32,000 bases of DNA, from contig NC_007493.2 of NCBI RefSeq assembly GCF_000012905.2, positions 2,850,001 to 2,882,000 on the forward strand, read 5' to 3'. The notes beneath the pieces were generated by a model. It saw only the letters and a program-made list of their open reading frames with translations, was not told the DNA's origin and ran no database searches. Positions 23,748-30,485 of this stretch are shown here, piece after piece (position 1 is the first letter of the stretch; every line of letters starts with the position of its first letter). Both the position numbers and the translations under genes were made by a program. Source of the DNA: Cereibacter sphaeroides 2.4.1. GTDB lineage: Bacteria; Pseudomonadota; Alphaproteobacteria; Rhodobacterales; Rhodobacteraceae.

Positions 23748-25793
23748 ATGAACATGAGACCTGACGCCTTCGGCGAGGCGCGCGCGCCGGCCATCGCGTG
23801 CCCTCCCCGTCCGCTGGATGAGTTGCGGATCGTGCCGCTCTCGACCGGCCTGGCCGCGATCTATCTGGATGCGCCCCCGGCTGGCGGGCGGCGCCCGCGG
23901 CTCGCAGTGACGCTCGATGGCCGTCCGGTGCCGTCGCCCTCGCTGTCTGCGGCCCTGCCGCTCGAACGCGGCGGTCTGCGCCATCTCGTTCTTTTTACGC
24001 AGGACATGCCGGAACTCCTTGCGCGCGACCTGCTCCTGACCCTCGACGGCGTGCCCCGGGCCGAGGCACGGTCCGAATGGCTTCAGCCCCCGCTCAGGCC
24101 CCTGCCCGCGCTGGTCGAGGGGCTGGCGGCAAGCGGCCGGACCCGATTCCTGAAGATGCTTCTCACCACCGCCGCCTCGCTGTTCTCGGGTCATGGCGCC
24201 GAGCTGGCGGCGCTGGCGCAGCGGATGCTCGACCTCTGCGCGGTGCCCGTGGCGCGGCCGCTCGGCGCCGCGGCCTTCGGGGCGGGCCATGCCATCCGAA
24301 GCCACGCCTGGGCCGAGCCGCCCGCGCCGGGGGCGCCGGTGGTGGCGCTCGGCCGGCAGATCGGGCGGCTGGCCGGTTGCGACGCACGGAGCGACGGGGG
24401 CCTGCTGCATCTCCACCTGCCGCCCGCCGCCCGCGCGGAAGGGGACCTTGTGATCTTCACCCCCGATCCGGTGCGGCTGCCGGCTCCCAACAAGGCTGCG
24501 GCGCCCATGACCGCGTGGCTCAACGGTCGAAGCCCCGCCATCCGCGCCTGGGCGCTCGGCCGTGTGCGCTCGGCCGCGGCGGGGGACCCGGCGGCGCAGG
24601 CGCTTCTGGCCGAGATGCAGCGCCCCGACCTGCCGGTGCGGCTGGCTGTCCGCTCCCTCTGCGTCGCCCCGGGCGGCCTGCTCTATGCCTTTCGGCTCGA
24701 GGATCCCGAGCGGCTGGTCCGCACCCTGCGGCTCGAAATTGCCGGCCGGCATCTCGATCTCGATCTGCACCGCGGCCCTGCTGGAACGGGCCTGTGCGCG
24801 GGCTTCGCGCCGCTCGAGGCGGAGGCGGCCCCCTGCCGCATCCAGATGGTGCTCGGCTCGGGACGGATCACGACCATGGCGACGGTGCAGCCCGCAGCCT
24901 TCGACGGCAGCGAACCGGACGGCTTCGCCGAGGTCTGGCAGGCCTGGCACCGCATCTCGGGCCCGCCGGAGGTCAACCCTGCGCGGGTGCTCGCCGCAAT
25001 CCGCAGCGCCCGTGCTCCGCGCCGGATCCCGGTGCTGGTCCAGCGGTTCGGATCCCCCCGGACAGGTCGGATCGCCCTGATCGCCCCGGCGGGCGCCCAT
25101 CCCGATCTGATCTCCGCCCGTGCCGCTGCGGTGGGGGCCGGCGGCTGGCAGGCCGAGATCCTCCTCACCCTTCCCGAAGGACCCGCGGCTGCCCGGATGC
25201 GCGACGCGGCGGCGGCGGCGGCGGCGCTCCACGACCTGCCGCACCGCCTCGTCCTGCACGATGCGCGGGCCCATCCGGCCGAGGTGCTGCGGGCGGCGGC
25301 GGCCCTGATCGAGGGGCCGCTCCTTCTCCTTGGGGCCACCGTCCTGCCGGCGACCCCGGGGTGGCTCGAAGACTGGCTCCGGCATCTGGAGGAGACGCCG
25401 GCCCTCGTCACCGCAGGGGCGGTTCTCGATCATGAAGGCGCCGTCTGGGAGGGACCCCTCGATCTCGGTGCGGAAGGGCTCCTGCGGCCCCTCGACGGGT
25501 TGCCCGCGCGACGTCTCGCCGGGACCTCCACCTCTTTCCCGTCGCCCGAGCTTGCGGGACTGTCCCGCGCGGGGGTGATGCGGCTTCTCGCTTCGGCCAC
25601 GGGTCATGCTGACCTCGCCCCCGCCCTCGCCGAACTGGCCGCGGCGGATCGCGCCGCAGGCACAGCCTCGCCCTTCCGCGTGAGCCACCCCTTCCGCCGC
25701 TTCGGAGGCACCGCCCATCCCACGGGGTTCGCGGAAGCCCTGCGCGGCGAGGAGCTGCGGCGGCAGGCGCTCCCCGCGGCGGAGGGCCTCTGA
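23748..25793 (+). CDS. Orphan protein A (681 aa): unknown N-terminal region plus C-terminal GT-A-like domain lacking DxD
   Basis: High third-position GC in this frame throughout. The stop TGA (25791-25793) overlaps the next ATG (TGATG). The C-terminal third (RIALIAPAG...LLLLGATVLPATPGWLEDWLRHL...) resembles a family-2 glycosyltransferase fold by eye. It is a paralogue of orphan protein B. The start is uncertain among ATG 23748, ATG 23754 and GTG 23712. Confidence 0.7.
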   Translation: MNMRPDAFGEARAPAIACPPRPLDELRIVPLSTGLAAIYLDAPPAGGRRPRLAVTLDGRPVPSPSLSAALPLERGGLRHLVLFTQDMPELLARDLLLTLDGVPRAEARSEWLQPPLRPLPALVEGLAASGRTRFLKMLLTTAASLFSGHGAELAALAQRMLDLCAVPVARPLGAAAFGAGHAIRSHAWAEPPAPGAPVVALGRQIGRLAGCDARSDGGLLHLHLPPAARAEGDLVIFTPDPVRLPAPNKAAAPMTAWLNGRSPAIRAWALGRVRSAAAGDPAAQALLAEMQRPDLPVRLAVRSLCVAPGGLLYAFRLEDPERLVRTLRLEIAGRHLDLDLHRGPAGTGLCAGFAPLEAEAAPCRIQMVLGSGRITTMATVQPAAFDGSEPDGFAEVWQAWHRISGPPEVNPARVLAAIRSARAPRRIPVLVQRFGSPRTGRIALIAPAGAHPDLISARAAAVGAGGWQAEILLTLPEGPAAARMRDAAAAAAALHDLPHRLVLHDARAHPAEVLRAAAALIEGPLLLLGATVLPATPGWLEDWLRHLEETPALVTAGAVLDHEGAVWEGPLDLGAEGLLRPLDGLPARRLAGTSTSFPSPELAGLSRAGVMRLLASATGHADLAPALAELAAADRAAGTASPFRVSHPFRRFGGTAHPTGFAEALRGEELRRQALPAAEGL

Positions 25794-27034
25794 TGGCGCT
25801 CCGCATCCTGCAGATCGCGCACGATCATCCCGACTGGACGAGCGGCGGCACCGAGATCGTGGCGCATGACCTGCATCGCGCCCTGTCGCGCCGCGGCCTC
25901 GACTCGCGCTTCCTTGCGGCCGCGACCTCGCTTCAGCGGCCCGAGGCGATGGCGGGCAGCCTCGGCCATCTCGGCGAGGACATGGTGCTGCGCACCGGCG
26001 GCTACGACCGGTTCCTGATGAAGCGGCACGACGGGCTGCGCTGGCTGGAATCGGTCCGGCGCCTTCTGACCGATGCTGCGCCCGATGTGGTCCATCTGCA
26101 CGGGCTCGACCGGATCGGGGCAGAGATCCTGCCGGCTCTTCGCCGCTTCGCCCCGGCGGCCCGCATCGTCATGACATTGCACGACTATCAGATCATCTGC
26201 CCGAACGAAGGGTTGCTGCTCACCCGCCCCGACGGATCCCGCTGCCGCGGCGCCCGGCCCGACAGCTGCCGCGCCTGTTTTCCGGAGCTCGGCGCCGACC
26301 GGCACGCCCTGCGCAAGACCTATCTCGCGACCCTGCTGCAGGGCGTGGACTGTTTCCTTGCCCCGAGCCGCTTCCTGAAGGACCGCTTCCTCGACTGGGG
26401 CCTGCCCGCGACGAAGCTGCAGCTCATGCCGAACGCGGTGGCTCCGCTCGCGCTGATGCAGGACAAGCCGCGGGTGCGACGGGACCGCTTCGCCTTCTTC
26501 GGCACGCTCGCCCTGCACAAGGGCGTGCTGACCCTGCTCGAGGCGGCGGCGCAGCTGAAGGCCGAGGGCGCGGAGCTGCGGCTCGCCTTCCACGGCGGCC
26601 TGCGCCATCCCGAGCCGGCCTTCCGCACGGCGTTCGAGACGGCGCTGGCGGCGGCACGCCCCCTCGCCCAGCACCCCGGTCCCTATGACCGGGCCGCGCT
26701 GGCCAGCCGGATGGCCGATGTGGATTGGGTCGTGGTGCCCTCGCTCTGGTGGGAGAATGCGCCGCTCGTGATCCTCGAGGCGCAGGCCGCGGGACGGCCG
26801 GTCATCGCCTCGGGCATCGGCGGCATGGCCGAGATGGTCAAGGACAGCGAGACCGGCCTCCTCGTTCCGCCCGGAGATGCCGCGGCCCTTGCCGAGGCGC
26901 TGCGCACGGCTGCGGGGGATGCCGATCTCTGGGCGCGGCTCGCGGCGGCGCAGCCCCGCACCAGCCACGAGCGCTTCGTGGACGCCCATCTCGATCTCTA
27001 TCGGACCCTTCTGGAGGGGAGGCACGCGGCATGA
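25793..27034 (+). CDS. GT4-family (GT-B, retaining) glycosyltransferase, copy a, with Cys4 insertion
   Basis: 413 aa. The C-terminal GT4 core is VPSLWWENAPLVILEAQAAGRPVIASGIGGMAEMVKDSETGLLVPPGD (E-x7-E motif). The N-terminal Rossmann domain carries C-x14-C-x7-C-x2-C at residues 136-162. Confidence 0.85.
   Translation: MALRILQIAHDHPDWTSGGTEIVAHDLHRALSRRGLDSRFLAAATSLQRPEAMAGSLGHLGEDMVLRTGGYDRFLMKRHDGLRWLESVRRLLTDAAPDVVHLHGLDRIGAEILPALRRFAPAARIVMTLHDYQIICPNEGLLLTRPDGSRCRGARPDSCRACFPELGADRHALRKTYLATLLQGVDCFLAPSRFLKDRFLDWGLPATKLQLMPNAVAPLALMQDKPRVRRDRFAFFGTLALHKGVLTLLEAAAQLKAEGAELRLAFHGGLRHPEPAFRTAFETALAAARPLAQHPGPYDRAALASRMADVDWVVVPSLWWENAPLVILEAQAAGRPVIASGIGGMAEMVKDSETGLLVPPGDAAALAEALRTAAGDADLWARLAAAQPRTSHERFVDAHLDLYRTLLEGRHAA

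Positions 27035-30477: not shown

Positions 30478-30485
<8 letters not shown>
29208..30485 (+). CDS. GT4-family glycosyltransferase, copy b, with Cys4 insertion
   Basis: TTG at 29208 overlaps the upstream stop (TTGA) and follows agggaaagg. It gives (M)KALVLSHAHPAFSIGGAQVASHNL, which aligns with the N-terminus of copy a (ALRILQIAHDHPDWTSGGTEIVAHDL). The GT4 core is VPSTWWENAPVVIQEAFHHGRPIIASDIGGMAEKVRDGIDGLHF. GTG at 29082 is an alternative start but would overlap the upstream gene by 130 nt. Confidence 0.8.

Follow-up and report, generated by a model that had tools for sequence, protein, structure and literature searches.

The closest described relative of the locus reported here is the exp (wge/wgd) cluster of Sinorhizobium meliloti, which directs the synthesis of exopolysaccharide II (EPS II), a galactoglucan built of a Glc-Gal disaccharide repeat with alpha-1,3 and beta-1,3 bonds (PMC1403797, PMC8227245). 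ExpE2 of this cluster is annotated as a beta-glucosyltransferase and ExpE4 and ExpE7 as galactosyltransferases (PMC1403797, PMC3233446, PMC8227245, PMC2912261), and ExpE1 is secreted via ExpD1/ExpD2 together with TolC, all of these (ExpE1, ExpD1/ExpD2 and TolC) being required for EPS II (PMC1403797, PMC2912261). Galactoglucan assembly and export in S. meliloti are unresolved, reviews give the glycosyltransferases by homology only, and a preprint places the galactoglucan cluster outside the Wzx/Wzy scheme (bioRxiv 10.64898/2026.08.21.746188). We analyzed a 32,000-nucleotide stretch of Cereibacter sphaeroides 2.4.1 (NC_007493.2, positions 2,850,001 to 2,882,000; "the window", within which all positions below are numbered), in which two large proteins, X1 and X2, alternate with two family 4 glycosyltransferases (GT4), GT4a and GT4b. 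In our judgement this region is probably the glycosyltransferase core of an exopolysaccharide system of the galactoglucan (EPS II) type in a compact chromosomal form, combining alternating GT4s, X modules and dependence on an RTX protein and a type I secretion system (T1SS). The genes concerned are the following.

21312-22625, minus strand: divergent RTX (hemolysin-type calcium-binding repeat) protein of 437 amino acids (Pfam HemolysinCabind, E 5e-58).
22845-23687, plus strand: ExpE1/WgeA-like secreted RTX calcium-binding protein of 280 amino acids (Pfam HemolysinCabind, E 4e-72).
23748-25793, plus strand: X1, 681 amino acids, a diverged member of the ExpE2/WgeB family (by profile comparison).
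25793-27034, plus strand: GT4a, 413 amino acids, a GT-B retaining-type glycosyltransferase and ExpE4/WgeD orthologue (by Pfam, identity and clade assignment).
26747-26834, plus strand: stretch of GT4a with two nucleotide runs that recur in GT4b at 30180-30267 (exact matches).
27031-29211, plus strand: X2, 726 amino acids, ExpE6/WgeF orthologue (by tblastn).
29208-30485, plus strand: GT4b, 425 amino acids, with a TTG start overlapping the X2 stop codon, ExpE7/WgeG orthologue (by Pfam GT4 domains and identity).
30478-32000, plus strand, cut by the window end: ExpD1/WgdA-like PrtD-type type I secretion ABC permease/ATPase (NCBIfam TIGR01842).

Each of these plus-strand genes would have a counterpart in S. 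meliloti: the RTX protein in ExpE1, X1 in ExpE2, GT4a in ExpE4, X2 in ExpE6, GT4b in ExpE7 and the ABC protein in ExpD1, with an ExpD2-like membrane fusion protein (MFP) encoded past the window. The best matches were one-to-one, at 45% identity for GT4a and ExpE4, 53% for GT4b and ExpE7, 27% for X2 and ExpE6 (E 3e-47 by tblastn; 31% on Azospirillum plasmids), 44% for the ABC protein and ExpD1, and 45% over 234 amino acids for the 280-amino-acid RTX protein, whose gene opens the plus-strand run, and the protein at the ExpE1 position. The pSymB match of X2 falls in the exp (wge/wgd) galactoglucan cluster itself. The ABC protein matched TIGR01842 (type_I_sec_PrtD) with an E-value of 3.5e-149 and 497.8 bits, against a cut-off of 510 and with the protein truncated at the window end. 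The locus thus has an ExpE1-like RTX gene at the head of the operon, ExpE2- and ExpE6-type proteins each with an ExpE4/ExpE7-type GT4, and a T1SS of the PrtD/PrtE type.

The same order (RTX, X1, GT4a, X2, GT4b, ABC, MFP) was found in Paracoccus yibinensis, Amaricoccus macauensis and C. sphaeroides, and S. meliloti and Azospirillum argentinense have it with a methyltransferase gene added between X1 and GT4a. We surveyed 50 alphaproteobacterial loci, taking one genome per species: X1-GT4a-X2-GT4b was kept in 43 of them, 41 of which also had RTX upstream and ABC downstream, and most of the rest were cut by contig ends. A divergent pair of RTX genes was present in most of the 50 loci, the 437-amino-acid protein keeping its position in related loci and sharing 58% and 53% identity with its Paracoccus and Amaricoccus counterparts respectively. 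In three loci from metagenome-assembled genomes (MAGs; L045 at 10001-12122, L047 and L054), X2 appeared as two separate tblastn pieces, which might be due to a frameshift or an assembly error, or mark a pseudogene.

GT4a and GT4b aligned end to end, as the preliminary description of this DNA had proposed, with 36% identity over 417 columns (E 8e-76). Both carry an N-terminal Glyco_transf_4 and a C-terminal Glycos_transf_1 domain above the Pfam cut-offs and the EX7E motif, as expected for CAZy GT4 (EX7E at nt 26753-26779 of GT4a and 30186-30212 of GT4b, read as ENAPLVILE and ENAPVVIQE in the alignment), and by these motifs they look like active retaining enzymes. GT4a is closer to ExpE4 (45%) than to ExpE7 (37%), and GT4b shares 76-84% identity with its Paracoccaceae orthologues. 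Members of the a and b clades share 33-43% identity with each other, against 19-25% with the other GT4s of the S. meliloti cluster, and have in common a four-cysteine (Cys4) insertion in the N-terminal domain (H[DE]Y..C-x14-C-x7-C-x2-C; nt 26180-26278 in GT4a and 29598-29696 in GT4b), so the duplication proposed for the GT4 pair holds and these are specific paralogues. In the slightly wider form H[DE][YF]..C-x(13-15)-C-x7-C-x2-C the motif was present in 22 out of 22 ExpE4/ExpE7-type GT4s checked, and motif comparison found no such insertion in ExpC or in the C-terminal half of ExpA23. From its sequence the Cys4 motif is a candidate zinc site and family signature.

Two nucleotide runs are identical between the GT4 genes, TGGTGGGAGAATGCGCCG at 26747 and 30180 and ATCGGCGGCATGGCCGAGA at 26816 and 30249, exactly where they had been reported. 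Both pairs are offset by 3433 and are therefore in register, and identical k-mers of at least 16 bases were common to GT4a and GT4b and to no other gene pair of the region. The runs encode the WWENAP (EX7E) and IGGMAE motifs. Conservation of these motifs and codon bias in a 70% GC genome are enough to explain them; gene conversion was considered as the origin of the 18-19 nt runs and found unneeded, since codon bias in this genome is strong and the runs coincide with the two motifs that are conserved best.

X1 and X2 had been described as orphans, a status that proved to be a search artefact. Neither had a match in Pfam (E<=0.01), in NCBIfam or among PDB sequences. An exhaustive HMMER search with an X1 profile nevertheless returned 405 representatives at E<=1e-3, of which 76 reached E<=1e-30, the top 149 matches all being X1-type, and a word-index search returned at least 164 homologues of X2, in Paracoccus, Amaricoccus, Paenirhodobacter and Rhodobacter. 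The word-index search gave just seven proteins for X1, and the same seven with a 10-sequence alignment as query; the alignment search missed the Paracoccus X1 orthologue that was present in its own query. This paucity probably arose from the Ala-rich composition of X1 saturating the candidate list. Plain tblastn related X1 to ExpE2 weakly (E 6e-4), and profile comparison with hhalign aligned X1 to ExpE2-type proteins over the full length (E 1e-60, reversed controls null). ExpE2-type proteins in turn aligned to the C-terminal 420 residues of X2 (E 1.2e-42).

The relationship of X1 to X2 emerges clearly at profile level only. By BLASTP their similarity was borderline, with a best E-value of 0.034 over the C-terminal 140 amino acids, above the limit of 0.01 that the preliminary description had set beforehand for a significant pairwise match. 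With X1 and X2 both containing 16-19% alanine, such a score would fit an artefact of alanine-rich, high-GC composition, in which case the GT4 genes alone would have been duplicated. Profile comparison makes this explanation extremely improbable. With shallow profiles (8 and 45 sequences) hhalign gave an E-value of 3.9e-9 over 334 columns, and with deep profiles (71 X1-type and 118 X2-type sequences) 4.9e-17 over 410 collinear columns (A263-675 to B257-721, A and B being X1 and X2). Reversed profiles of the same composition gave E-values of 0.26-0.67, so alanine richness does not account for the similarity and this control refutes the artefact. Against it also stand the relationship of both proteins to ExpE2, the match of both structural models to GT-A folds (below), and the motifs GGLL..GW..DP and PGWL, which X1 and X2 had in common in all five species pairs. 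The GGLL..DP segments picked out in the preliminary description (A 307-330 and B 312-335) were aligned with each other by hhalign, and the similarity covers a C-terminal region of about 420 amino acids. In the N-terminal part of about 260 residues no similarity was detected (hhalign E 0.08-0.4, level with the reversed control), and N-terminal homology was rejected. These comparisons support X1 and X2 being paralogous over a beta-sandwich and a GT-A domain, with homology demonstrable at the sequence level for the C-terminal region of about 420 amino acids only. A further candidate relationship, of the N-terminal region of the X proteins to DUF6212 (ExpA1/WgaA), was rejected at an hhalign E-value of 0.17.

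The AlphaFold2 model of X2 (mean predicted local distance difference test score, pLDDT, 89.7) has three beta-sandwich domains with helical linkers followed by an alpha/beta domain, predicted to be a GT-A domain at about residues 465-693 (nt 28423-29109); Foldseek matched this domain to GalNAc-T2, TarP and PcManGT at E-values around 1e-7 with probability 1.00. The X1 model (pLDDT 85) follows the same arrangement, with immunoglobulin (Ig)-like beta-sandwiches followed by a predicted C-terminal GT-A domain at about residues 429-651 (nt 25032-25700), and matched K4CP, PcManGT and GalNAc-T2 (E 2e-5, probability 1.00), its N-terminal part matching Ig-like folds. A GT-A fold is accordingly predicted for both proteins, which lack both PF00535 membership and a DxD motif. 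The position equivalent to DxD reads G-A-T in X1 (nt 25332-25340) and E-P-S in X2 (nt 28723-28731), where the family consensus over 118 sequences is W95-x-P96-S/A; the X2 family also lacks the Asp after beta-2. In Paracoccaceae-type X1 proteins the DxD position is variable, with G-A-D in 43%. At the acidic base ("ED") position the window X1 has D-H-E-G, Paracoccaceae-type X1 proteins are variable, and X2 has Y-E-D-G-S (nt 28822-28836), which is about 100% conserved over the 118 sequences, H.DL..RL being nearly invariant. ExpE2 keeps the GT2 motifs, with N-S-D at the DxD position and a PF00535 match at E 2e-13, and its Azospirillum counterpart is also a Pfam GT2 protein. By the usual criteria, X2 and the window X1 would thus not be standard metal-dependent GT2 enzymes. 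No transmembrane segments were predicted in X1, X2, GT4a or GT4b, and the four proteins are therefore taken as cytoplasmic or peripheral.

The tandem duplication put forward in the preliminary description is real but not recent, each copy having its own orthologue in Rhodobacterales, Rhizobiaceae and Azospirillum. Since the four-gene order is kept in 43 of the 50 alphaproteobacterial loci, the duplication predates these lineages: the X-GT4 pair was duplicated before the split of Rhodobacterales, Rhizobiaceae and Rhodospirillales, and its order has been kept since. A single ancient duplication of the pair is the simplest account. Neighbor-joining trees of a first set of sequences supported an X1 clade at 94% and a GT4b clade at 95% bootstrap with weak deep nodes; with a larger taxon set, support for any single a or b clade stayed below 50% and the deep nodes were unresolved. 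Module 1 has evolved faster than module 2 (mean distances of 1.66 for X1 versus 1.05 for X2, and of 0.67 for GT4a versus 0.35 for GT4b), GT4b being the slowest-evolving gene of the set. Relatives with a single module, an ExpE2-like X beside one Cys4-type GT4, were found in an Acidisphaera MAG (L059, 8990-12630) and an Actinomycetota MAG (L058, about 4800-12100). A canonical Pfam GT2 domain was confirmed for the X of L059 only, L058 having several X1-like fragments. In the trees the GT4s of both MAGs branch next to the b clade, with deep nodes that have less than 50% support and give no polarity; this layout may be the state before the duplication.

The preliminary description went further and read the arrangement as two equivalent stoichiometric heterodimers, each of an orphan and its GT4 and each adding one sugar, which we consider a doubtful, though conceivable, interpretation. 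The alternating gene order with overlapping stop and start codons (TGATG, ATGA and TTGA) is as described. X2 directly precedes GT4b, in most cases overlapping it by 4 nt, in the window, Paracoccus, Amaricoccus and S. meliloti; evolution is faster in module 1 than in module 2 for the X protein and the GT4 alike; and the S. meliloti cluster encodes a GT2-GT4 fusion, ExpA23. The two modules are not equivalent, however: X1 and X2 have no N-terminal similarity, their catalytic motifs differ, and the methyltransferase gene lying between X1 and GT4a in S. meliloti and Azospirillum makes "two-gene module" too tidy a term. Rate covariation over 30 loci (mirror-tree) did not discriminate between pairings, with partial correlations of 0.20 for X1-GT4a, 0.54 for X2-GT4b and 0.58 for the non-cognate X2-GT4a. 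ExpA23/WgaB (S. meliloti pSymB, L006 13517-16198, minus strand, preceded by a DUF6212 protein) was considered as a fused X-GT4 module; its GT2 (residues 13-171) and GT4 (residues 494-832) domains were confirmed with Pfam, but it has no profile similarity to X2 (hhalign E 0.82) and serves as an analogy only. It indicates that GT2-GT4 pairs can be fused, and is not detectably related to X2 in sequence. What speaks for heterodimers comes down to adjacency and translational coupling.

In the EPS II-type system that we favor, the two retaining GT4 enzymes would add sugars alternately to yield a short-repeat polymer; the idea of two successive sugars in the preliminary description agrees with S. meliloti galactoglucan having a disaccharide repeat (PMC1403797, PMC8227245). 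The X proteins would provide the Ig-like/GT-A module, which in rhizobial ExpE2 is a canonical inverting GT2. In the X2 family and the window X1, with DxD lost, the module would more likely bind the acceptor or a partner, or carry out non-canonical chemistry, than act as a standard GT2. As in S. meliloti, appearance of the polymer outside the cell would depend on the co-encoded RTX protein and T1SS. The product is most likely an EPS II-type polymer and not necessarily galactoglucan.

Several points weigh against this assignment. The specificities of the S. meliloti glycosyltransferases are themselves assigned by homology only. The labels ExpE1 to ExpE8 were set on S. meliloti open reading frames (ORFs) of an unannotated record by gene order and size, using reviews. 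The wga operon, wgcA and the MarR-type wggR were found neither in the window, whose upstream genes are housekeeping genes, nor in the 10 kb downstream in C. sphaeroides, and the ExpE3 methyltransferase is likewise absent; a hexapeptide acyltransferase is present instead and there is no pyruvyl transferase in the C. sphaeroides locus, so the polymer need not be galactoglucan. Galactoglucan of the EPS II type bears both acetyl and pyruvyl groups. The alignment behind the X1 model was dominated by X2 sequences, hence this model cannot count as independent support for a common fold. The loss of DxD in X1 and X2 is read from sequence and does not prove inactivity, and the invariance of Y-E-D-G-S would argue for a retained function. 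Finally, no lipid-carrier priming enzyme, flippase or polymerase was found in the window or the flanks checked, which leaves the route of assembly and export unexplained.

This last absence also bears on an alternative in which the GT4s, helped by the X proteins, would act on the neighboring RTX proteins, glycosylating them in the cytoplasm prior to export by the T1SS, no free polysaccharide being made. The four genes are flanked by two RTX genes and a PrtD-type T1SS in nearly every locus, and the lack of predicted transmembrane segments would suit cytoplasmic modification. We nonetheless judge protein glycosylation unlikely: the usual view is that T1SS substrates pass in an unfolded, unmodified state, and the EPS II literature cited here does not mention a glycosylated ExpE1. 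In S. meliloti, ExpE1 is needed for EPS II for reasons not understood (PMC1403797), but this studied relative makes a high-molecular-weight free polysaccharide, for which the operons containing the homologous genes are required (PMC1403797, PMC3233446). Going beyond the EPS II-type assignment, the 9-10-gene Paracoccaceae cluster might be the minimal form of a polysaccharide pathway apart from the Wzx/Wzy, ABC-2 transporter and synthase routes, in which cytoplasmic GT4s held by Ig-like/pseudo-GT-A partners would build an alternating glycan that leaves the cell through, or is primed on, the RTX substrate of the PrtD-type T1SS; we offer this as a speculation that is rather unlikely to be right in full.

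The GC content of the window is about 70%. Analysis of GC by codon position, including third-position GC (GC3), gave one coding frame per plus-strand gene between 22.8 and 32 kb, and gene starts were then set by inspection of start codons. Antisense ORFs within the region were dismissed because they have the GC2-high pattern of shadow frames. Public gene calls for C. sphaeroides CP033434, whose locus is 95% identical, have the same protein lengths. The genes overlap by 1 nt at X1/GT4a (TGATG), by 4 nt at GT4a/X2 (ATGA) and X2/GT4b (TTGA), and by 8 nt at GT4b/ABC, and the five plus-strand genes from X1 to ABC are therefore considered translationally coupled. In CP033434 the ABC gene is followed by the genes for the MFP, a hexapeptide acyltransferase and a 195-amino-acid ORF. 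The latter two, a 268-amino-acid hexapeptide-repeat protein and an ORF without a Pfam family on record, lie past the window end at L008 19820-21217 (C. sphaeroides). They follow the MFP in most loci, and in some loci a gene for a tetratricopeptide repeat (TPR) protein separates the acyltransferase from the MFP.

The locus lies on the chromosome, with pnp, which ends at 20989, on one side and dnaE on the other. Between the convergent pnp and minus-strand RTX genes, a 14-bp hairpin (11 G-C pairs) with a T-rich tail at 21045-21076 is probably a bidirectional terminator. Among the upstream housekeeping genes are those for a heparinase II/III-like protein (9341-11077, minus strand) and a NAGPA phosphodiester-glycosidase-like protein (14200-14967, plus strand), and the highest GC content of the window was found at 10-12 kb (0.76-0.78). 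A transcriptome study of R. sphaeroides HY01 already uses the name expE1 for a gene (hemolysin-type calcium-binding, "galactoglucan metabolism") that was down (-1.99) under phosphate limitation (PMC6909082); it may be the gene at 22845-23687. The S. meliloti exp genes are induced by phosphate starvation, the opposite response (PMC1403797, PMC6909082).

As a kind of system, the one proposed here is already known from S. meliloti EPS II. What appears to be new, at a modest level, is that the system occurs in a compact form on a chromosome, that two "hypothetical proteins" belong to the ExpE2 and ExpE6 families, that these two families are paralogous, and that DxD has been lost throughout the ExpE6-type proteins. 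Few parts make up the compact version (a pair each of RTX proteins, X proteins and GT4s, plus a T1SS and an acyltransferase), and a conserved core is now defined in genetically tractable Cereibacter and Paracoccus strains, making gene-by-gene deletion feasible. ExpE6/WgeF, for which reviews give no function, gains a predicted fold and a family relationship and is flagged as a protein whose GT-A domain has no DxD. The names ExpE2/WgeB-like and ExpE6/WgeF-like can now be used to annotate the two "hypothetical proteins".

Compared with known systems, the C-terminal domains of both X proteins have the predicted fold of solved GT-A enzymes (GalNAc-T2, TarP, PcManGT and the chondroitin polymerase K4CP). 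They differ from these in having no PDB sequence match, no DxD and, in X2, no beta-2 Asp, and in the roughly 430-460 residues, forming Ig-like beta-sandwich and helical domains, that come before the GT-A domain. EXT1-EXT2 is a glycan polymerase pair in which one glycosyltransferase partner is degenerate. Likewise, in the CHSY3-CHPF chondroitin synthase heterodimer (PDB 9o4g, Foldseek rank 23 for X2) a GT-fold protein with impaired motifs stands beside an active glycosyltransferase, and an alternating copolymer is made. The likeness to CHSY3-CHPF and EXT1-EXT2 is one of working logic only; they belong to other glycosyltransferase families without detectable sequence relationship.

Among gene clusters, that on plasmid p2 of Azospirillum argentinense (NZ_CP032323.1, about 694-720 kb) has the order RTX, X1, GT4, X2, GT4 of the window with the T1SS ABC and MFP genes close by, but its galE, MarR, methyltransferase (between X1 and GT4a) and pyruvyl transferase genes and the canonical Pfam GT2 domain in its X1 bring its layout nearer to S. 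meliloti than to the window. The S. meliloti cluster on pSymB differs from the compact one in having the wga operon, which encodes dTDP-sugar synthesis, two pyruvyl transferases, a glycoside hydrolase, the GT2-GT4 fusion WgaB and the DUF6212 protein WgaA, and in having wgcA, the MarR regulator wggR, the ExpE3 methyltransferase, ExpE5 and ExpE8. Its T1SS genes form a separate wgd operon, whereas in the window cluster they lie downstream in the same operon. The window cluster, for its part, is chromosomal, ends with the hexapeptide acyltransferase and the 195-amino-acid ORF, and has an X1 that, unlike ExpE2, has no Pfam GT2 match and has lost DxD. The two nevertheless share the same seven families (ExpE1, ExpE2, ExpE4, ExpE6, ExpE7, ExpD1 and ExpD2), with best matches of 27% to 53% identity, the same relative order of RTX, X1, GT4, X2 and GT4, and a PrtD-type T1SS encoded without an outer-membrane gene.

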